Source of the DNA: a virus
Taxonomy: Duplodnaviria; Heunggongvirae; Uroviricota; Caudoviricetes
Direction: 5' to 3' (one strand)
DNA length: 57,958 nt
Virus record (IMG/VR): IMGVR_UViG_2778261152_000005
Location: 1 to 57,958 of that record
Below, one piece after another: positions 47,313 through 56,884 of the stretch (positions within the stretch are counted from its first letter, which is position 1; every line of letters starts with the position of its first letter). The translations under genes and the position numbers were made by a program. A model generated the notes under the pieces. That model ran no database searches, was not told the origin of the DNA, and saw only the letters and a list, made by a program, of their open reading frames with translations.

Positions 47313-47815
47313 ATCTTCCGGCCATTCTCGACATGTGCTGCGGTTCTCGTATGTTTTGGTTTAACAAAAGCGACCCGCGCGCCGTGTATTTGGATGCCCG
47401 TAGCGAGTCACACGTGCTTTGCGATAACAGGAAGTTGGAGATTCGCCCGGACGTACTCGGTGATTTCAGACAGTTGCCATTTGCCGACGGTCAATTTTTA
47501 CAGGTGATATACGATCCCCCTCATCTGCGCCGCGCCGGGCCTAACGGCTGGATGCGAAAAAAGTATGGCCAGTTGGATAAAGAGAACTGGCGTGAAGATC
47601 TTCGCGCAGGATTCGCAGAAGCATTTCGCGTGCTGGCACCCGGCGGCACGTTAATTTTCAAATGGAATGCTACGCAGATCCCTGTCCGCCAAATTATAGA
47701 ATTAACCGACCAGCAACCTACTATCTGGCAACGCACTGGCAAAGCAGATAAAACCCACTGGATAGTATTTTTAAAAGCCGTAGAGGGGTACCAGAACGGA
47801 TATGACCTCATCTAA
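47309..47815 (+). CDS. SAM-dependent (DNA) methyltransferase
   Basis: 168 aa. The motif I-like sequence is ILDMCCGS. The motif IV is DPPH. The target base is not deducible. Confidence 0.6.
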   Translation: MNLPAILDMCCGSRMFWFNKSDPRAVYLDARSESHVLCDNRKLEIRPDVLGDFRQLPFADGQFLQVIYDPPHLRRAGPNGWMRKKYGQLDKENWREDLRAGFAEAFRVLAPGGTLIFKWNATQIPVRQIIELTDQQPTIWQRTGKADKTHWIVFLKAVEGYQNGYDLI

Positions 47816-49202
47816 AATTTTCACCCCCCGCCCTTATCAAGACCTCATCATCAACCACGAAATCGACATCCTGCGCTGCAACATCTGGGCGGGCATGGGC
47901 ATGGGTAAAACCGTGGCGACGCTCACCACGCTGGAAGATCTCTTTATGGCGGGCGCAGAGACTCAGCCCGCGCTGGTTCTCGCGCCGCTGCGCGTGGCGG
48001 CCAGCACCTGGCCGGATGAAGCGGTTAAATGGGGGCATCTGCGCAATATCGAGGTACAGCCGATTGTTGGTAATGCCAAAGCGCGCGCGGCAGCGCTGGC
48101 GAACAGCAACGCCAGCGTGTTTACCATCAACTACGACAATCTGGTCTGGCTGGTGGAAGAACTGGGCGGCCGCTGGCCGTTCGGTACCGTTATCCCCGAC
48201 GAAAGCACCCGGCTGAAATCCTTCCGGCTGCGCGGTGGCGGTAAGCGCGCGGCGGCGCTGGGCAAAGTGGCACATAAACATATCCGACGCTGGATGAATC
48301 TCACTGGTACGCCAGCGCCAAACGGCCTGGTGGATTTGTGGGGGCAGGCGTGGTTTGTGGATCAGGGGCAGCGCCTCGGGCGAACTTACGGCGCGTTTAC
48401 CTCCCGCTGGTTCAACTCAATACAGTTTCCGGGGCAGAGCTGGACGAAGCTGGAACCGTTCACCCATTCGCAGGACGAAATACAGCGGGCACTGGCCGAC
48501 GTCACTATCTCCCTGGACGCCGCCGACTGGTTCGATATCAAAGAGCCTATCCATAACGTGATCCGCGTAGACATGCCGCCGAAGGCTCGCCAGCAGTATC
48601 GTGAAATGGAAAAGGAAATGTTCCTCGAGCTGAACGGCGAAGGCATCGAAGCGCCTAACGCCGCGGCAAAAACGGTGAAGTGTCTGCAAATCGCCAGCGG
48701 CGCGGTGTACACCGACGACGCCGGGAGCTGGTCAGAACTGCACGACGCGAAGCTGCAGGCGCTGGACAGTATTCTCACCGAAGCAGCTGGCGCGCCGGTA
48801 CTGGTGGCCTACCACTGGAAACACGACCTCGAGCGTTTGCTTAAAGCATTCCCTCGCGGTCGCCACCTCGACCAGGATCCACAGACGCTGCGCGACTGGA
48901 ACGCCGGAAAGATACCGGTTCTGTTCGCACACCCGGCCAGCGCAGGCCACGGCCTGAATATGCAGGACGGTGGCAACATATTGGTGTTTTTCTCGCACTG
49001 GTGGGACCTGGAACAGTACCAGCAAATTATCGAACGCATCGGTCCAACCCGGCAGATTCAGGCCGGACACAACCGCCCGGTGTTCATTCACCACATTATC
49101 GTCGCCGACACTATGGACGAAATGGTGATGGAACGCCGCAACTCAAAACGAACAGTGCAGGACATCCTGCTCGATGCCATGAAAAAGAGAGGTATAGCAT
49201 GA
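47802..49202 (+). CDS. SNF2/DEAD-like superfamily 2 helicase
   Basis: 466 aa. Walker A is AGMGMGKT. Motif II is IPDESTRLK. The C-terminal helicase lobe contains …HPASAGHGLNMQ…. Confidence 0.8.
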   Translation: MTSSKIFTPRPYQDLIINHEIDILRCNIWAGMGMGKTVATLTTLEDLFMAGAETQPALVLAPLRVAASTWPDEAVKWGHLRNIEVQPIVGNAKARAAALANSNASVFTINYDNLVWLVEELGGRWPFGTVIPDESTRLKSFRLRGGGKRAAALGKVAHKHIRRWMNLTGTPAPNGLVDLWGQAWFVDQGQRLGRTYGAFTSRWFNSIQFPGQSWTKLEPFTHSQDEIQRALADVTISLDAADWFDIKEPIHNVIRVDMPPKARQQYREMEKEMFLELNGEGIEAPNAAAKTVKCLQIASGAVYTDDAGSWSELHDAKLQALDSILTEAAGAPVLVAYHWKHDLERLLKAFPRGRHLDQDPQTLRDWNAGKIPVLFAHPASAGHGLNMQDGGNILVFFSHWWDLEQYQQIIERIGPTRQIQAGHNRPVFIHHIIVADTMDEMVMERRNSKRTVQDILLDAMKKRGIA

Positions 49203-49387
49203 CACCGGTTATCTCTGACACTGACCTGATTAACATCAAAGAGGTTGAGCGCTCTGTTGGCCTGAAAAAATCCAGCATTTATGAGCGCATCAGTAATAAC
49301 GAGTTTCCGAAGCCTAAGAAGCTCGGGAGCCGAACCTCCCGCTGGGTACGCGGCGAGGTCGAAGAGTGGAAAAAACAGTTTCTTTAA
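49199..49387 (+). CDS. AlpA-family HTH protein (excisionase/regulator)
   Basis: 62 aa: MTPVISDTDLINIKEVERSVGLKKSSIYERISNNEFPKPKKLGSRTSRWVRGEVEEWKKQ. An ATGA overlap joins it to the helicase stop. It is convergent with the integrase. Confidence 0.75.
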   Translation: MTPVISDTDLINIKEVERSVGLKKSSIYERISNNEFPKPKKLGSRTSRWVRGEVEEWKKQFL

Positions 49388-50556
49388 ATCAAACGAAGCT
49401 GGTCAATATAATCCGCATACCACTGCATCATTTCCCGACGCCCTTCCATATACAGGGCATGGTTATAAACCCCGCGTATATTGTTCTTGTCCACGTGGGC
49501 GATCTGGAGTTCAACCCAGTCAGAGTTGAATCCTTTATCGTTCAGGATAGTGCTGAACGTATGCCGGAAGCCATGCCCTACTACCCTCCCCTTATACCCC
49601 AGCGTGTGGATCATCCTGTTTATTGTGTTCTCGCTCATGACCTTTGACGGGTCATTCCTGCCGGGGAACATATTCACGTATCGACCTGTCAGCCCGTGCA
49701 GTTCTTTTAGCAAGACGACAAGCTGATCGGAAAGAGGTACCAGGTGCGGGCGGTCCATCTTCATAAATTCGGCGGGTATCTCCCACAGCCGATTATCGAA
49801 ATCTACCCATTCCCATTTTGAATGCCGCAGTTCGTAAGTACGCAGCCCCGCCAGCATCATGATCTGCAACCCCAGCCGGGGCAGCGGGCTCCCCTTGTAA
49901 CTCTCAAGCGCCGCGAGAAAATCAGGCAGTTCCTCCGCCGTCAGGAACGGGAAGGACTCTCCTTTATGCCCGGTCATTGCGCTATTCAGTTCGCTGACGG
50001 GGTTATACTTCGCGCGCCCAGTCGCAACTGCATAGCTGAATACTTCACCGCACCACCGGCGCGTTTTGGCTGCTTTCTCGGTTGCGCCGCGATTCTCAAT
50101 TTTGCGCAGTGCCCTCAGCATCTGGACAGGCTCGATTTCAGCAACTGGCAGCTTACCCACCGCTGGGAAAATATCTTTGTTGAATGCTTCGAGAATGTCA
50201 GAGGCATAGCCAGGCGACCAGCGCGGCTTCTTGAATTCATGCCATTCTATCGCGATCTCTTTTAACGTGATCGTCTTTACTGCCGCAGCTGCGGCATGGC
50301 TTTTGACTTTTACCGGGTCAACACCTGCCGCAACGTTACGCCGGGCCTCGTCGCGTTTTTCGCGAGCGGCCGCCAGCGAAACAGCCGGGTATACCCCGAG
50401 CGCCAGCATCTTTTCTTTACCGGCGAAAGTATAGCGATAGCGCCAGTATTTTGCCCCGCTGGTTTTCACCAGCAGGATAAGCCCGTTGCCGTCTGGCAGC
50501 TTATAGTCTTTCTCGGCAGGCTTTGCCGTCTCGACCTGTCGCGCGTTTAGTTTCAT
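49384..50556 (-). CDS. P4-type tyrosine integrase of prophage B
   Basis: 390 aa from the ATG at 50556. It begins MKLNARQVETAKPAEKDYKLPDGNGLILLVKTSGAKYWRYRY…, the DUF4102-type arm-binding N-terminus. The catalytic signature is HGFRHTFST…QIAH…Y. The track ORF extends to 50646. Confidence 0.9.
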   Translation of the reverse strand: MKLNARQVETAKPAEKDYKLPDGNGLILLVKTSGAKYWRYRYTFAGKEKMLALGVYPAVSLAAAREKRDEARRNVAAGVDPVKVKSHAAAAAVKTITLKEIAIEWHEFKKPRWSPGYASDILEAFNKDIFPAVGKLPVAEIEPVQMLRALRKIENRGATEKAAKTRRWCGEVFSYAVATGRAKYNPVSELNSAMTGHKGESFPFLTAEELPDFLAALESYKGSPLPRLGLQIMMLAGLRTYELRHSKWEWVDFDNRLWEIPAEFMKMDRPHLVPLSDQLVVLLKELHGLTGRYVNMFPGRNDPSKVMSENTINRMIHTLGYKGRVVGHGFRHTFSTILNDKGFNSDWVELQIAHVDKNNIRGVYNHALYMEGRREMMQWYADYIDQLRLI

Positions 50557-50557
50557 A

Positions 50558-50601
50558 GGTACCCGCCTCAAACTCAGATACCCGATTATGTACCCGTTTT
50601 T
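50558..50601 (+). promoter_or_regulatory. arm-type integrase binding repeats (right arm) / int promoter region
   Basis: ggtacccgcc…gatacccgattatgtacccgttttt carries three (g/a)tacccg copies. It matches 15615-15638. Confidence 0.5.
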
Positions 50602-50709
50602 AATTTGGATTGCAACGGCAAAAGGTGGATTATGGCGGACAAACAAAACGCCTAATATGGCGAATTTAAAGGAAAAATGGAGGACTAAGGATGTTAGCGG
50701 ATTAAAAAA

Positions 50710-50755
50710 TGGTGCCGATAATAGGAGTCGAACCTACGACCTTCGCATTACGAAT
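50710..50755 (-). pseudogene. thrW: thrW tRNA-Thr(CGU) 3' fragment, 46 nt from the anticodon loop to CCA (att copy 3)
   Basis: tggtgccgataataggagtcgaacctacgaccttcgcattacgaat is the reverse complement of thrW from …ATTCGTAATG… to …GGCACCA. The match ends in the anticodon stem, and the D-arm and 5' acceptor are absent. Confidence 0.85.
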
Positions 50756-51149: not shown

Positions 51150-51204
51150 GGTAATGCTGCCAACTTACTGATTTAGTGTATGATGGTGATTTTAAGGTGC
51201 TTGC

Positions 51205-51480
51205 GTGGCTTCCATTTCCATCAGATGTCCTTCCTGCTCCGCTACTGAAGGCGTGGTGCGTAACGGCAAAAGCACTGCCGGACATCAGCGCTATCTCTGC
51301 TCTCATTGCCGTAAAACATGGCAACTACAGTTCACTTACACCGCCTCTCAGCCCGGTAAGCACCAGAAAATCATTGATATGGCCATGAATGGCGTCGGAT
51401 GTCGCGCCAGTGCACGCATTATGGGCGTTGGCCTCAACACGGTTTTACGTCACTTAAAAAACTCAGGCCGCAGTCGGTAA
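51205..51480 (+). CDS. insA: IS1 InsA
   Basis: 91 aa: [43 protein letters not shown]… (zinc finger plus HTH). Confidence 0.95.
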
Positions 51481-51902
51481 CCTCGCGCATACAACCGGGC
51501 AGTGATGTGATTGTCTGCGCTGAAATGGACGAACAGTGGGGCTACGTCGGTGCTAAATCACGTCAGCGCTGGCTGTTTTACGCGTATGACAGGATACGGA
51601 GGACGGTTGTGGCGCACGTCTTCGGTGAACGCACTCTGGCCACACTGGAGCGTCTTCTGAGCCTGCTGTCGGCCTTTGAGGTCGTGGTATGGATGACGGA
51701 TGGCTGGCCGCTGTATGAATCACGCCTGAAGGGAAAGCTGCACGTTATCAGCAAGCGTTATACTCAGCGCATTGAGCGACATAATCTGAATCTGAGACAA
51801 CATCTGGCAAGGCTGGGACGGAAGTCACTGTCGTTCTCAAAATCGGTGGAGTTGCATGACAAGGTCATCGGGCATTATCTGAACATAAAACACTATCAGT
51901 AA
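51399..51902 (+). CDS. insB: IS1 InsB' frame (expressed as InsAB' transposase by -1 frameshift at aaaaaac, 51456-51462)
   Basis: The 167-aa frame contains …[26 protein letters not shown]…[10 protein letters not shown]…, the DDE region. Confidence 0.95.
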
Positions 51903-52230
51903 GTTGGAGTCATTACCGTACTCTCCTTGGAGTATGAAGACGTTACTCACTTTAAGATTAGCATCCTCAAACCACTGTGAATTTGCTCCCATACGGAAAG
52001 AGGTGACTCAGACCTACAAAAATTTGTCAGGCCCGAAGGGTATCTTGCGCCAGCATAAAATACTGGATATAACCTAACTATTCATTTTAGCAATAGCCAT
52101 TGCTTACGAGAGCTAGCTAATCTACGTAAATGCTAGGCATAACAGTGTCTTTAAAAGATATAGGTGGAATAAGTTCTGAAGTATGAGTGCTCTTCTTTTT
52201 CATCTATTCGTAATCAAAATGTGGATGTGA

Positions 52231-55200
52231 TTGTTAATGACAAATAAAAAAAATTTGAGTAATCCTTTTTCTACAGGCGGAGGCGGTGTTCATTTTGAAG
52301 CACATGTCCAAGCGTCTTTTGTTGCTCTAATGCTAACAGGCGGTAATGCACCTTGTCTTCCTTGTTGGCCCATAGTGGAGATAAATCTCCAGGGCAAGAT
52401 TGATGGTTTTGATACCGACGACTTGATCGTCGTTGTTAAAGATTTCAACAGCAATGAAAAACGGAAGCTATTAGGACAAATAAAGCATTCTATTTCATTT
52501 ACGCAAGGTAATGCGATACTTGGGGAAGTTATACAGGCTGCTTGGAACGATTTCAACAATCCTGACTTGTTTACCAAGAACAAGGATGTTATTGCACTGA
52601 TCACCGGTCCGCTCAGTTCGACCGATACACACAATGTGCTCTGGTTATTGAATCAGGCTAGACACACAAAAACAGTCGATGAATTTTTGAGGAACGTTCA
52701 AAAAGCCAAGTTCAGCCCGCCTAAAAGTACTGAGAAACTGGAGGCCATCCAGTTTCATCTGAAGATGGCAAACAGTGGGAACGATTTAACAAACGATGAG
52801 CTTTATGACTTTTTGAACCATTTCCATTTACTAGGGTACGATCTGGGTAATGAATCAGGCGTCGTCCTTTCTTTGCTGCACTCCCACATAGCGCAATTCC
52901 ATCAACAGTATCCTCAGTGGGTTTGGTCGCGGATAGTTGATATCGTACAAACTTGGAATAAAGATGCTGGCACTATCATTTCAAGTAAGCTACCTGAAGA
53001 TCTTTTAGATGTTTTCAAACAAAGGGTTATTGCTGAAATACCTGAGAAGTTGAGGTTAGTACAACCGGTAGTCAAAACCGACTGGACTCACCACCCAGAT
53101 GCCTCTTATTTAGCCTTAGCAGTGTTGATTGGGCAATGGAATGATAAAAATGAGTGTGACCGAAATGTACTAACCCAATTGCTTGGTATCAGCTATGACG
53201 AATGGCTAAGGAAGGCTCGAGAGATTTTACATAGCCCAGACAGTCCTTTGTCCCTAAAAAACGGCATTTGGAAAGTAACAAATCGAATGGAGCTATGGAG
53301 TCTTCTTGGATCCCGCATTTTTGATCAGAATCTTGAATTGTTTAAGTCTTCCGCGATTTCCGTACTCAAAGAGCCAGACCCTGCTTTCGAATTACCTGCT
53401 GAAGAGCGTTACGCTGCTAGTATTCATGGTAAGGTGCTGAAGTTTTCATCCACGCTGCGACAAGGTATAGCAGAGGGTTTAGCCATAATCGGGAGTCGGC
53501 CAGAGGTTTGCGTTAACTGCTCTCAGGGGAATGCTGAAACTTCCGTTAACGTCGCAATACATACAATTTTGACTGATGCAAACTGGGTTTTATGGGGTAG
53601 CCTAAACGGTTTGCTACCAACTTTGGCTGAAGCAGCTCCTGCAAAATTTCTTGATGCAGTTGAGAAGGCAATGCGTCAGACTCCTTGTGTATTTGATGAG
53701 CTTTTTTCTCAAGAAGTAAATGGTATCACTGGTGGTAATTATCTGACAGGACTGCTATGGGCTCTAGAAGAATTAGCCTGGGATGAGCAATACCTAGTAC
53801 GCGTCTGTGTTGTACTGGCCGAACTTGCCAGCCACGATCCTGGGGGCAAGTGGGCTAATCGACCATCTAACTCGCTTACTACTATATTATTACCGTGGTT
53901 TCCGCAAACGCTGGCATCTATAGAAAAACGAAAAGTTGCAGTCAACGTCATCTTGCAGGAATGGCCTGACATTGCCTGGAATTTACTCGTCCAGCTTCTA
54001 CCCGGTCACCATCAAACCTCTTCTGGGTCACACAAGCCCTCTTGGCGCCGAATAATCCCAGATGATTGGGAAAGCAAAGTGACTAATCAGGATTACTGGT
54101 TGCAGACATCTTTTTATGCTGAGCTTGCCGTCAAAAACGCCGGAGAAGATATCGAACGCCTTACCTTGTTGATTGATAATTTTGATAGCCTTCCATCTCC
54201 TGCTTTCGAACATCTTCTTAAGCACCTCTCTTCGGAAACAATTAATTGTCTTAATGAAGAGCAGCGAGTTGTAATTTGGGATCATCTTCATCGATTCGCA
54301 AATAAACATCGGCGATTCTCTAATGCTAATTGGGCTTTACCTGATGATCTGCTGACCAAAATCGAAAATGTTGCCGAGCAACTGGCACCTACCAATCCAT
54401 TCAACTTATATCAGCACCTTTTTTCAAATCGAGATTTTGATCTTTACTTAGAAAATGGCGATTGGGAAGAACGGAGAAATAAACTCGAATCAAGGCGCGA
54501 ATCCGCAATATCAGAAATTCTTAGGCAAGATGGCGCAGAAGGCGTTATTCGATTTGCAGATCACGTTTCTGCGCCCCATCAAATAGGAAGTGTACTCGGC
54601 ACTATCAACGATGATGTGTTCGAAAAACTTCTTTTGCCCCGTTTCCTCAATACAAAAGAAAATAAGTATAAGGCATTGGTAAGCGCTTTTATTTGGAAGC
54701 GTTTCTATCTCAAAGGCTGGGAGTGGTTCGACAATCTGGATAAAGCTGACTGGACTCCTGAACAGTTAGGCCAATTCTTTGCTTATCTGCCTTTTAACAA
54801 GGAGACCTGGACCCGAATCTCTCATTATCCTCAAGCTTCCGAGAACGAATATTGGGCTCGCACCGATGCAAATCCTGACCTGGGTGAAGGTGATCTTACT
54901 AGTGCCATCGATAAGCTGATTGATCATGGCAGACCACTTGCGGCAATCAATTGCCTGTGCAGGATGCATCAGACAAAGCAGCCAATCGATACTGAACAGT
55001 GTATCCGCGCTTTGCTTGCTGCCACTTCAACTAACGAATCTAGCTCCAACATGGATGGTTACAACATAACTACCCTTATCCAATTTCTTCAGACTGATCC
55101 CAAAGTGAATCCGGATAATCTTTTTCAGATCGAGTGGGCTTACCTTCCATTGCTCGATGGTCACCAAGATGCTGTGCCTAAGTTCCTTGAGAATAAAATG

Positions 55201-55779
55201 GCTAATGATCCAGAATTTTTCTGCGAAGTAATCCAACTCATTTATCGTTCTGACAAAGAAGACAATATGACAAGTGAACCAACAGATGAATTGAAAGCAA
55301 TCGCAAAAAATGCCTGGACTCTTTTGTACAACTGGAAGACACCGCCAGGAAGCCAATCAAATGGGACGTTCAACGGAGAACGCTTTACTGAATGGCTTCA
55401 GAAAGTTAAGGAGGGTTCTACGGCATCAGGTCACCTGGACGTTGCACTCAGCAAAGTTGGTGAAGTCTTGATTTATACTCCCTCCGATCCGAATGGCTTG
55501 TGGATAAACCGAGAGGTCGCAGCTGCTCTCAACGATCGAGATGCTGAGAGTATGCGCAGGGGCTACATGACAGGAGCCTACAACTCACGAGGTGTTTATT
55601 GTGTTGATCCAACAGGAAAACCTGAGAGAGAGCTAGCTGACCAGTTCCGGGCAAAAGCAGAAGAAGTGGAAAACGCTGGTTTTCAGCGATTCGCCGTTAC
55701 CTTAAGAGATTTAGCGGTTGGCTATGACCACGAAGCTGCACAGGTTATCAGCAATCTAAATATTGGAGAGGATGATTAA
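52231..55779 (+). CDS. orphan 1182-aa protein: PD-(D/E)xK-like N-terminal module plus a ~950-aa helical region; function unknown (candidate defence gene)
   Basis: A single uninterrupted ORF, with an ATG at 52237 or a TTG at 52231. There are no co-oriented neighbours within 300 nt on either side. It is AT-richer than prophage B. N-terminal motifs are GGGGVHFE (16-23), E50, D63-D64-LIVVV and Q83-I-K85. No Walker A/B motif occurs anywhere. Confidence 0.8.
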   Translation: MLMTNKKNLSNPFSTGGGGVHFEAHVQASFVALMLTGGNAPCLPCWPIVEINLQGKIDGFDTDDLIVVVKDFNSNEKRKLLGQIKHSISFTQGNAILGEVIQAAWNDFNNPDLFTKNKDVIALITGPLSSTDTHNVLWLLNQARHTKTVDEFLRNVQKAKFSPPKSTEKLEAIQFHLKMANSGNDLTNDELYDFLNHFHLLGYDLGNESGVVLSLLHSHIAQFHQQYPQWVWSRIVDIVQTWNKDAGTIISSKLPEDLLDVFKQRVIAEIPEKLRLVQPVVKTDWTHHPDASYLALAVLIGQWNDKNECDRNVLTQLLGISYDEWLRKAREILHSPDSPLSLKNGIWKVTNRMELWSLLGSRIFDQNLELFKSSAISVLKEPDPAFELPAEERYAASIHGKVLKFSSTLRQGIAEGLAIIGSRPEVCVNCSQGNAETSVNVAIHTILTDANWVLWGSLNGLLPTLAEAAPAKFLDAVEKAMRQTPCVFDELFSQEVNGITGGNYLTGLLWALEELAWDEQYLVRVCVVLAELASHDPGGKWANRPSNSLTTILLPWFPQTLASIEKRKVAVNVILQEWPDIAWNLLVQLLPGHHQTSSGSHKPSWRRIIPDDWESKVTNQDYWLQTSFYAELAVKNAGEDIERLTLLIDNFDSLPSPAFEHLLKHLSSETINCLNEEQRVVIWDHLHRFANKHRRFSNANWALPDDLLTKIENVAEQLAPTNPFNLYQHLFSNRDFDLYLENGDWEERRNKLESRRESAISEILRQDGAEGVIRFADHVSAPHQIGSVLGTINDDVFEKLLLPRFLNTKENKYKALVSAFIWKRFYLKGWEWFDNLDKADWTPEQLGQFFAYLPFNKETWTRISHYPQASENEYWARTDANPDLGEGDLTSAIDKLIDHGRPLAAINCLCRMHQTKQPIDTEQCIRALLAATSTNESSSNMDGYNITTLIQFLQTDPKVNPDNLFQIEWAYLPLLDGHQDAVPKFLENKMANDPEFFCEVIQLIYRSDKEDNMTSEPTDELKAIAKNAWTLLYNWKTPPGSQSNGTFNGERFTEWLQKVKEGSTASGHLDVALSKVGEVLIYTPSDPNGLWINREVAAALNDRDAESMRRGYMTGAYNSRGVYCVDPTGKPERELADQFRAKAEEVENAGFQRFAVTLRDLAVGYDHEAAQVISNLNIGEDD

Positions 55780-56125
55780 TCTAAACACCTAAATGTGGAG
55801 AAACTGGCTGTCAATCGATGTTCCTGTCACAGACAGCCAAGTTTTAGTTATTCGCTGATCTGCACTTAGTTGATGAATATAAACTCATCTTAGCAACGTA
55901 CCTCTCCCTCTTGATTAAAGGTAGCGTACATCGCCCCGTTGAACTCACAGTACTAACAGTCCTCGTGACAGTGGTTATCTGTGATGTAGAGTCTGTGGAG
56001 GCGGTTCAAATCCTCTCAGGCAAAAATATGTAAAATCGGTAGCAGCTGGAAATCATTCAATACTCGCACTATCGAAAGTTAGACAGCCAGCCGTGGCTCG
56101 TGCTTGCATACGACGTGCTGCGGTT

Positions 56126-56257
56126 TCATTTATCTCCGACCGGAAACTTCTTATACAGAGTCGATACGCCAACATCATAGATGATCGCCACCTTCTGGCG
56201 AGAAACTCCTGATGCAATTTGTCGTCCGGCCTGTGCCTATTGCTCCGGCGTGAGAGT
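56126..56257 (-). pseudogene. C-terminal HTH remnant of a Pin/Hin-type DNA invertase
   Basis: The minus strand reads TLTPEQ*AQAGRQIASGVSRQKVAIIYDVGVSTLYKKFPVGDK*. It has an in-frame TAG (56237-56239), and the catalytic N-terminal domain is absent. Confidence 0.7.
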
Positions 56258-56338
56258 AATACAGTAAACTGTAGAAAAAGCCCATTAAACCTAATATAAT
56301 AATAAGTTACAGAATTATCTTTACTGAATAATAGATAT

Positions 56339-56884
56339 ATGAATATTAGTGAACTTAAAAAGTGTATACACTATGAAGTAATAGGTTGTAAACGCCCTTT
56401 CTCCTGGCGAAAAGCAATTGTTCGCGCAATAAAACACAGAAGATCACGTTATTTATTTTGGTGGCGCGTAGCAAAATATCTTTTTGATAAAGGCGGATAC
56501 CGGCGAAAGATTGCAGGAAAAATAGAACGCTTCATTCTTGATAAATACAATGTAACCGTTCCCTTAACTGTAAATATTGGTAAAGGGTTCGACATATCTT
56601 ATCTCAATGGCGTTGTTATCGGTCACAAAGTTACAATAGGTGAAAATTGTTCAATTAAGCCTGGGGTAACTATTGGACTTCGCGGTGAATTTAATGATAT
56701 GGATATTGTCATAGGAAATAATGTAACCATTGGCTGTAACGCCACCATCCTTGGTGGCAAAGTGCATATAGGGAATAATGTAAAAATAGGAGCTCATGCA
56801 TTGGTACTGCATGACATTCCTGATGACTCCACATTCATTACCAAATTTCACTCTGAAATTATTTATAATTCATCTCACACATAA
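56339..56884 (+). CDS. hexapeptide-repeat (left-handed beta-helix) O-acetyltransferase, moron
   Basis: 181 aa with repeated [LIV]-G-x4 hexapeptides (…VVIGHKVTIGENCSIKPGVTIG…IVIGNNVTIGCNATILGGKVHIGNNVKIGAHALV…). It is very AT-rich and sits between the invertase remnant and tfa. Confidence 0.8.
   Translation: MNISELKKCIHYEVIGCKRPFSWRKAIVRAIKHRRSRYLFWWRVAKYLFDKGGYRRKIAGKIERFILDKYNVTVPLTVNIGKGFDISYLNGVVIGHKVTIGENCSIKPGVTIGLRGEFNDMDIVIGNNVTIGCNATILGGKVHIGNNVKIGAHALVLHDIPDDSTFITKFHSEIIYNSSHT

Follow-up and report, generated by a model that had tools for sequence, protein, structure and literature searches.

We propose that the gene at 52237-55779 of the analysed window (the whole 57,958-nucleotide stretch of DNA) is cargo of a lambdoid prophage, at whose end it lies, that its product is a self-contained immune protein with both sensor and effector, and that it is a candidate for phage defence; we place the probability of this reading at about 0.7. 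The findings support the protein as a candidate variant, free of an NTPase, of the Avs/Dsr1-like sensor-effectors. Its long C-terminal body recurs throughout a very large family that moves horizontally, in which the N-terminus varies and is one of many cell-killing effectors. A single-gene defence function had been suggested in an earlier note on this DNA, and the computational checks that we ran were all in favour of it, for a candidate defined by sequence and model.

The uninterrupted 3.5-kb ORF of the earlier note is there (52231-55779, plus strand), but the length of 1182 residues given for its product needs correction. TTG 52231 is the first in-frame start codon, and the ATG six nucleotides on is the start in RefSeq and in essentially all homologues of ~1180 residues; translation probably begins at this ATG, giving 1180 residues. 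Because we place the start there, residue numbers in the earlier note run two higher than those used here. The gene is, as had been noticed, AT-richer than the neighbouring prophage, with 43.9% G+C against 50.6% for window positions 1-49000 and 54-61% for the adjacent element. Literature look-ups by the accession WP_000182525 and for a pairing of Cap4 with HEAT repeats gave no match, and the accession is absent from those portions of the DefensePredictor supplement that were covered. Features of the gene and its surroundings are given in the table.

Table. Features of the candidate gene, its predicted protein domains and its flanks (window coordinates; aa, residues of the 1180-aa protein)
Feature	Position	Strand	Remarks
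P4-type integrase	49384-50646		beside thrW fragment
thrW 3'-end copy	50710-50754	-	45 nt, att-sized; adjoins P4-type integrase
IS1	51150..51917	+	complete, 768 bp, without 9-bp target duplication
Upstream spacer	51918..52236	.	319 nt, AT-rich, from IS1 end (51917) to ATG
Candidate gene CDS	52237..55779	+	complete, 1180 aa + stop; RefSeq WP_000182525.1, 'hypothetical protein'
N-terminal effector domain	52237..53022	+	aa 1-262, predicted Cap4/DUF4297-like PD-(D/E)xK nuclease
E21 codon	52297..52299	+	E23 of the earlier note; helix 1 of nuclease core; invariant or nearly so
D61-D62 codons	52417..52422	+	D63-D64 of the earlier note; start of strand beta-2; invariant or nearly so
Q81-I82-K83 codons	52477..52485	+	Q83-I-K85 of the earlier note; end of strand beta-3; (D/E/Q)xK part of predicted catalytic motif
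Linker	53023..53082	+	aa 263-282, low confidence; pLDDT below 50 at aa 266-277
Winged-helix-like unit	53083..53277	+	aa 283-347; start of conserved body
Alpha-solenoid body	53278..55752	+	aa 348-1172; putative sensor; common to whole family and phrog_18693
Most conserved body core	53569..54156	+	aa ~445-640
Downstream spacer	55780..56338	.	~560 nt to next intact gene (56339)
Helix-turn-helix (invertase-like) pseudogene remnant	~56126-56254	-	129 nt; sole feature in downstream spacer

The N-terminal domain is predicted to be a Cap4/DUF4297-type PD-(D/E)xK DNA nuclease with its site (E21...D61-D62...Q81-x-K83) intact. In the structural model, which gave the same fold when the full-length protein was used, the core has the order alpha-beta-beta-beta-alpha-beta (helices 17-33 and 93-106; strands 45-51, 63-69, 74-83 and 118-126) with an added helical extension, and its likeness to Cap4-type domains reaches beyond the generic core. 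The motifs earlier quoted from the sequence (G14-G17 with F20-E21, E48, D61-D62 followed by LIVVV, and Q81-I-K83) are all present, and the residues picked out there as catalytic turned out to be those conserved across alignments: in three alignments E21, D61, D62, Q81 and K83 show little or no variation, and they occur in 39 of 41 divergent homologues with 34-51% identity to the query. The Asp of the PD motif that would bind metal lies in the D61-D62 pair. Modelled fold and conserved residues thus bear out the nuclease assignment; the domain had no Pfam match at E <= 1, the DUF4297 model included, so that fold and motif, and not a sequence profile, are the basis for placing it with Cap4/DUF4297. 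The corresponding domain of family members matches the PADLOC model DUF626_VIII (E 9e-11), an accessory protein of type VIII retrons (PMC7736814).

The linker is the junction at which relatives switch their N-terminal domain, their matches to the query beginning at residues 253-292. Behind it, residues 289-347 are modelled with pLDDT of about 90-95 as helices 289-298, 306-316 and 320-331 and short strands 300-302, 338-341 and 344-347, a topology from which we infer the winged-helix-like unit. The solenoid that follows gave structural matches of the generic HEAT/ARM kind, with no specific solved relative, and PDB sequence searches with the single protein, an N-domain profile and a body profile found no match. 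Its core carries the conserved motifs W450, W453-GSL, LLPxLAEAAP, NYxTGLLWALExLAW, DPGGxWANRPxNSL and LPWxPQT, and Trp makes up 3.1% of the residues of the protein. The full-length model has pLDDT 84 and pTM 0.51, the geometry between domains being uncertain. This model agrees with the earlier description of the remainder as a helical scaffold free of NTPase and transmembrane segments: there is no Walker A motif in the protein, no NTPase family was matched in Pfam, NCBIfam or PADLOC, and no segment is transmembrane-like (maximum KD19 1.27). A possible P-loop, 'AAxIYGKT', seen in some relatives at a position equivalent to query residues ~391-399, was rejected, as it lies in a solenoid helix.

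The body family comprises 6,663 clusters at 50% identity, and representative relatives align to the query over residues ~280-1172 only. In front of this body, relatives carry SIR2, TIR, PNP nucleosidase, FRG, Schlafen/AlbA_2, metallophosphatase, DUF4062, conflict-type GT4 or HEPN-like domains (N-terminal matches of representatives: PNP_UDP_1, SIR2_2, GT4-conflict, FRG, Metallophos, DUF4062, TIR_2/SEFIR and SLFN_AlbA_2), and several of these alternative N-termini match PADLOC effector models. Exchange of effectors on a constant body is typical of immune sensors. The fusion of the body to many effectors, which is the strongest evidence for a defence function, is invisible to a reader who has the one sequence alone. 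A similar body, at positions 354-1243 of 1258, is found in phrog_18693 (PHROGs, no assigned function), which matches residues 282-1168 of the candidate with E 5e-119 and differs from it in an N-terminus of about 350 residues. Some relatives, of the P0326 type, keep a Rossmann-like module that lacks a Walker A motif. Homologues are ~70% identical across phyla, an unusual degree of conservation where an arms race would be expected. The query itself had no significant match among Pfam, NCBIfam and PADLOC models (with PADLOC, none even at E <= 1); in these scans and the PDB searches it matched no characterised non-defence family, and the earlier note had likewise not recognised it as any named system.

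The Avs (AVAST) STAND receptors, such as Avs8A (PD-lambda-4A, WP_000963924.1) and the Cap4-nuclease forms SeAvs3 and SeAvs7, likewise join an N-terminal nuclease and a long helical-repeat sensor in one polypeptide, have interchangeable effectors within the family and have spread by horizontal transfer. Avs8A, in which a nuclease is fused to an NTPase and to a sensor made of repeats, cuts DNA once it has bound monomers of the HK97 capsid (bioRxiv 10.1101/2025.07.02.662641). The PADLOC model PD-Lambda-4_A (Avs8A) was matched at profile positions ~556-857 by 9 of 85 family members, as weak single-sequence matches (E 1.7e-5 to 3e-3); these all fall on the conserved core of the body, at query residues ~445-760, in one consistent register, although helical repeats can match spuriously, and the query itself did not match this model. 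There are clear differences: the Avs8A nuclease is Mrr-type (bioRxiv 10.1101/2025.07.02.662641) whereas that of the candidate is Cap4-type, and the candidate lacks the STAND NTPase, its nuclease being joined almost directly to the winged-helix-like unit and solenoid; tetramerisation driven by ATP, as in Avs proteins, cannot operate here in that form.

A similar design, compared by description, is that of the single-gene system Dsr1, in which the effector also sits directly on a bent helical sensor of ~900 residues with no NTPase, and whose sensor is likewise combined elsewhere with numerous effectors, SIR2 and HEPN-like domains among them. The Avs7 sensor is common to NTPase-less proteins including Dsr1 and senses capsid protein (PMC13581612); members of the Dsr1/Avs7-sensor superfamily would be those retrievable by PSI-BLAST from the Avs7 or EcDsr1 sensors (WP_029488749.1, OJX47172.1 and WP_079981830.1) and listed in Supplementary Table 8 of PMC13581612. 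The effector of Dsr1 is SIR2, in contrast to the Cap4-like nuclease here, and the SIR2 fusions of the candidate family are few, with a SIR2 that resembles the pAgo-associated type. A profile search from three SIR2 fusions recovered about 23 clusters with SIR2 and body (for example in Ca. Brocadia), then pAgo-associated SIR2 proteins; E. coli Dsr1 was not among them.

In other systems, related nucleases are under a different kind of control: Cap4 of CBASS through a SAVED domain and a cyclic nucleotide, HamA of Hachiman through the helicase partner HamB, and LmuA of Lamassu (Cap4-nuclease type) through the SMC-like partner LmuB. The candidate has neither a SAVED domain (no match in Pfam or PADLOC) nor a partner gene; it is a lone gene with variable neighbours and no CD-NTase operon. 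Control of its nuclease must therefore come from the fused solenoid. Upx (PDB 9wuf, 1212 residues), reportedly a single-gene system of Gao et al. 2020, likewise is a single protein of ~1200 residues with a restriction-endonuclease-like domain; the candidate matches neither its profile nor its structure.

We suggest that in the uninfected cell the solenoid would keep the nuclease inactive, and that during infection it would bind a conserved phage protein, as in Avs sensors and Dsr1. Because of the weak similarity to Avs8A, the trigger could be an HK97-fold major capsid protein. Binding of this ligand would change the conformation of the body and allow Cap4-like domains to pair or oligomerise, and the activated nuclease may then degrade double-stranded DNA indiscriminately, aborting the infection. 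We are least sure of what the trigger is and of the oligomeric state; autoinhibition and oligomerisation are drawn by analogy only, since the geometry between domains in the model is uncertain.

More tentatively, the whole family, with its at least ten effector types, may consist of pattern-recognition receptors that lack an NTPase and descend from STAND proteins of the Avs8 kind, in which the shared solenoid would recognise one phage protein, perhaps an HK97-fold capsid monomer, and switch on whichever effector is attached without ATP-driven oligomerisation; we regard this as possible though doubtful. If such descent were true, the P0326-type relatives would be evolutionary intermediates, and if the family are indeed NTPase-less receptors, the STAND NTPase would be dispensable here and the Dsr1-like lineages already known would be joined by another, independent one. 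Confirmation of our main reading would extend NTPase-free sensing of phage proteins, so far documented for the Avs7/Dsr1 sensor, would give a function to a family that thousands of bacterial lineages carry and that is absent from Pfam, NCBIfam and PADLOC (2023), and would explain a rare cargo gene of E. coli prophages. One sensor with about ten effectors is also a natural series in which to study how the signal passes from ligand binding to the effector.

The gene is nearly identical in all its E. coli carriers (7 of 5,426 complete genomes), where it sits just past the tail-fibre genes of lambdoid prophages, and 11 viral contigs of IMG/VR also carry it. Nine further genomic contexts again show it as a lone gene with different neighbours each time, which agrees with the earlier statement that it has no operon partner. 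PADLOC-recognised systems lie within 10 kb in four of these nine neighbourhoods, a small sample and not a statistical survey: they are AbiD, a type II-A retron (RT and NDT), PtuA/PtuB-like (Septu-like) genes inside a type I R-M operon, and PDC-S06. The remaining neighbourhoods hold toxin-antitoxin pairs, integrases, IS elements, ICE genes or prophage genes. Homologues thus occur in mobile or defence contexts (prophage ends, islands, conjugative plasmids and ICEs, once within the conjugation module), and not in housekeeping ones.

These locations, with toxin-antitoxin pairs alongside and one plasmid copy adjoining a gene whose annotation reads superinfection exclusion protein B, would also suit a weapon that mobile elements turn on one another (in plasmid, ICE or prophage exclusion, or as an addiction module) and not on lytic phages. 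We think this unlikely as an alternative, because the same locations are typical of bona fide anti-phage systems and the neighbours include AbiD, retron, Septu-like and R-M genes; the two roles are, besides, compatible with each other.

A restriction-like nuclease (type IV, Mrr-like or otherwise DNA-sensing), whose body recognises or tracks DNA such as modified phage DNA or ends, seems improbable to us also. In relatives the nuclease is replaced by NADases (SIR2, TIR), a nucleosidase, a glycosyltransferase and other domains, and the N-terminus is therefore an interchangeable killing module and not the element that defines the target; moreover, the neighbourhoods examined held no methyltransferase partner, and Mrr_cat and R-M models in Pfam, NCBIfam and PADLOC went unmatched. 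High conservation across phyla and a body like generic HEAT/ARM scaffolds could point to a structural, scaffold or DNA-repair role, or the gene might be an inactive prophage-borne relic. Both are very improbable, given that the gene is rare and patchy and always found in accessory DNA, that the partner domains of the body are immune effectors, and that the intact ORF has kept its catalytic residues and shows clear purifying selection. A candidate sensor-effector immune protein remains our preferred reading.

The flanks of the gene are largely as first described, with more than 300 nt of non-coding DNA on each side. Its native promoter presumably lies in the upstream spacer, although a simple consensus scan of 51918-52236 found no promoter-like site, and a promoter and terminator scan of both flanks gave no convincing signal on the upstream side. 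Beyond the downstream spacer follow an acetyltransferase gene and, on the minus strand, prophage tail-fibre assembly and tail-fibre genes; this module is decayed and the helix-turn-helix remnant present, as claimed. The placing of the gene in the thrW hotspot holds in part: the window has the att-sized copy of the thrW 3' end, but the tRNA gene itself is absent, ARAGORN finding no tRNA gene over the window. In other strains the gene sits in the ykgJ/yagU-pao variable region. The complete IS1 was rightly said to lack a target duplication, since its 9-bp flanks differ (CACAGTGCG against GTACTCTCC). The junction between IS1 and the gene is identical in other E. coli carriers, with the exception of strain A28, which has ISSen4 there.

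We rate the gene at 52237-55779, which an earlier note had described from the sequence as a candidate single-gene anti-phage system, as encoding a sensor-effector receptor that has a Cap4-like nuclease, lacks an NTPase and belongs to a large unnamed family; this reading is made by analogy with known immune proteins. The RefSeq entry for the identical protein (WP_000182525.1, “hypothetical protein”) begins at ATG 52237, rather than at the TTG which is the earliest in-frame start of the ORF, giving 1180 aa, and almost every homologue has a length close to 1180 aa; residues are therefore numbered here from this ATG. The earlier description of the gene holds apart from its start codon, and its residue numbers are higher than ours by two. 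The uninterrupted ORF that it reported was found, as was the AT-richer composition (43.9% G+C, against 50.6% for window positions 1-49000 and 54-61% for the neighbouring integrated element), and neither a Walker A motif nor a membrane-like segment, both said to be missing, is present in the 1180-aa protein.

Comparison of the N-terminal domain (residues 1-262) with known structures ranked SeAvs3 first (12.4; 198), followed by EcCap4 (10.0; 194), Hachiman HamA (9.1; 187), AbCap4 (9.0; 181) and Lamassu LmuA (9.0; 168), with ordinary restriction enzymes at 5-6 (110-136), and this ranking was unchanged when the full-length model was used. In the model E21 lies in helix 1, D61-D62 open strand 2 and Q81-x-K83 closes strand 3, which is the canonical placement of a PD-(D/E)xK site, as the earlier note had read it; every alignment shows the residues as invariant or almost invariant, and 39 of the 41 homologues with 34-51% identity to the query retain them. 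Two divergent members also matched the first ~180 positions of PADLOC DUF626_VIII, a type VIII retron accessory protein (PMC7736814), over residues 9-193 (E 9e-11) and 14-147 (E 5e-6). The query did not reach the Pfam DUF4297 model, so the name Cap4-like reflects the domain's fold and motif rather than a sequence profile. The nuclease is conserved and apparently active.

Beyond a disordered linker (residues 266-277), the full-length model (pLDDT 84.4, pTM 0.51) has a helix-strand-helix-helix-strand-strand unit at 289-347, which looks like a winged helix, and from there to the C-terminus helices only, agreeing with the helical body proposed earlier. The query gave no significant match to Pfam, NCBIfam or PADLOC and no match to the PDB by sequence, and we found no paper that names the protein. 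Residues 282-1168 are matched by phrog_18693 (E 5e-119), a PHROG of unknown function whose N-terminus, of ~350 aa, is unlike that of the query.

When 1.84 billion cluster representatives were searched exhaustively, 6,663 clusters matched at E <= 1e-3, 3,112 of them also at E <= 1e-30. For many representatives the match is confined to query residues ~280-1172, preceded by other N-termini of 150-520 residues; Pfam identified PNP_UDP_1, SIR2_2, GT4-conflict, FRG, Metallophos, DUF4062, TIR_2/SEFIR, SLFN_AlbA_2 and, weakly, DUF4145 (HEPN-like) among these, and plasmid relatives at 25-28% identity have HTH N-termini. PADLOC labels several of the swapped N-termini as pAgo-associated SIR2, PN-superfamily CBASS effector, PDC-S15 or bSEFIR, all of them effector domains from known systems or candidate ones, and does not recognise the common body. 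Avs, Dsr1 and other immune sensor-effector proteins are built in this way, with a toxic N-terminus that can be exchanged on a C-terminal body that stays the same. This design principle is already known, but the family is very large and unannotated, and offers a natural series of swapped effectors on one body.

Only one named system is linked to the family, by matches that are weak but recur. Nine members, between them bearing three kinds of N-terminus, matched PADLOC PD-Lambda-4_A (E 1.7e-5 to 3e-3) within its positions 556-857 of 1283, all aligning, at a consistent offset of about 90-110 residues, to query residues ~445-760, where the body is best conserved; the query itself gave no match to this model. 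PD-lambda-4A has been renamed Avs8A, in which an Mrr nuclease and a P-loop NTPase are joined to a repeat sensor; once bound to HK97-fold capsid monomers, Avs8A degrades DNA (bioRxiv 10.1101/2025.07.02.662641; PMC13581612). Remote homology between the family body and the Avs8A sensor is plausible on these alignments, not established.

Some family members differ further. P0326, P0340, P0348, P0361, P0387 and other relatives have an uncharacterised N-terminus of ~365 aa (see also residues ~330-520 of P0350), in which inspection of the sequence shows a nuclease-like motif (GxDG...WEIGTG...KAT...FVFVTP) and, after it, a Rossmann-like module (L.I.T..P.EV.DFVAA...RCL.V) resembling a STAND nucleotide-binding domain minus its Walker A motif. 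This module may be a vestigial NTPase tying the family to Avs8-like ancestors. On Buttiauxella plasmid pBTX_57 (locus L006, 5570-8664) the body stands alone (922 aa) with a separate 106-aa gene directly before it, possibly a split version with effector and sensor as separate proteins. On Rhizobium leguminosarum plasmid pPR4 (locus L005, 3443-14001) an HTH-fused distant relative of 1372 aa lies in a same-strand row, preceded by an “RHE_PE00001 family” gene and followed by two large genes that lack annotation (1281 and 415 aa). This row may represent a multi-gene form of the system.

We propose that the solenoid would bind a conserved phage protein, by analogy with Avs3, Avs7, Avs8 and Dsr1 (PMC13581612); that binding would free the nuclease from autoinhibition, the Cap4-like domains assembling; and that DNA would then be degraded and the infection abort. 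Computation shows a conserved solenoid body, the constant part of the family, and neither an NTPase nor a partner gene. A capsid protein would be the first candidate trigger, solely because of the weak similarity to Avs8A. The protein could instead be a restriction-like enzyme that senses DNA itself, a weapon for conflicts among mobile elements, or a scaffold with no immune role; we consider these readings less likely, mainly because in relatives the place of the nuclease is taken by NADases and further effectors that do not act on DNA.

The proposed sensor-effector receptor would work in the same way as Avs proteins and Dsr1. It is not a member of STAND/Avs, however, since the NTPase that defines them was tested for and is absent, nor is it a CBASS Cap4, as it has neither a SAVED domain nor an operon. 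Identity with Upx was also rejected. Its sensor may belong to the published Avs7/Dsr1 sensor superfamily or be an offshoot of Avs8.

Close homologues number more than 1,800. Full-length relatives at ~70% identity occur in Enterobacterales, Vibrio, Microbulbifer, Acidithiobacillus, Chlorobium, a Planctomycetes MAG and many Gammaproteobacteria, an unusually high conservation across phyla for a putative immune sensor, which implies recent inter-phylum transfer, strong constraint, or both. We read nine further neighbourhoods, scanning selected neighbours with PADLOC, and the context of homologues is mobile and defence-rich, as the earlier note expected. The gene directly follows AbiD and a gene annotated superinfection exclusion protein B on a Shewanella plasmid; in Kosakonia it shares an island with CbtA/CbeA and an antirestriction gene, with PtuA/PtuB-like genes within a type I R-M operon 1.6 kb off; two Dickeya genomes have CcdAB, ArdC and, at 5 kb, a type II-A retron (RT + NDT), one of them with an integrase gene upstream; and in Vibrio vulnificus an integrase fragment and PDC-S06 (E 4e-177) lie immediately upstream. 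Neighbours elsewhere are SymE, Fic and HsdR (Alloalcanivorax), IS21 (Pseudomonas) and ParE/RelB (Pectobacterium), and the Yersinia copy is within an ICE conjugation module. No neighbour gene is common to the nine loci, and the protein therefore probably acts alone or with host factors. An rpiB-like gene (LacAB_rpiB + DUF3666) is found near the gene-carrying island in both Dickeya zeae (L009, 8589-9227) and Vibrio vulnificus (L014, 3860-4495), and may mark a shared insertion hotspot.

Among complete E. coli genomes 7 of 5,426 carry the gene (99.4-100% identity), just past lambdoid-prophage tail-fibre genes, where the prophage meets the ykgJ/yagU-pao chromosomal region; three IMG/VR viral contigs have it at 99-100% identity and eight more have relatives. 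The IS1-gene junction of the window recurs in six other E. coli genomes; strain A28 instead has ISSen4 at that place.

Features around the gene in the window
Feature	Position	Strand	Remarks
ORF resembling SNF2/DEAD-type helicase	47802-49202	+	466 aa; within element bounded by the P4-type integrase
P4-type tyrosine integrase	49384-50646	-	
Copy of thrW (tRNA-Thr) 3' end	50710-50754	-	45 nt; beside the integrase
IS1, complete	51150-51917		Upstream of gene; 9-bp flanks CACAGTGCG (left), GTACTCTCC (right)
Spacer			319 nt, IS1 end to start codon
Single unbroken ORF	52231-55779	+	Begins with TTG
Gene	52237-55779	+	Begins with ATG
Downstream stretch			~560 nt, gene end to next intact gene; one 129-nt helix-turn-helix pseudogene remnant, opposite strand
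“Serine acetyltransferase” gene	56339-56884	+	Intact; hexapeptide-repeat; 181 aa; 38-40% G+C

The flanks of the IS1 differ, so that it has no target duplication, as had been noted, and this suggests arrival or rearrangement via recombination or deletion, not simple insertion. The claim of more than 300 nt of non-coding DNA on each side also stands, with the pseudogene remnant alone in the downstream stretch. That of a thrW hotspot stands in part: an attachment-sized thrW fragment and the P4-type integrase are present, but ARAGORN found no tRNA in the window, and the thrW copy is the remnant of an attachment site rather than a tRNA gene. Beyond the downstream stretch comes the acetyltransferase gene, followed by prophage tail-fibre genes. 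The acetyltransferase gene, with the defence candidate on one side and the tail-fibre assembly gene on the other, could be a prophage moron, acting for example in surface-polysaccharide acetylation.
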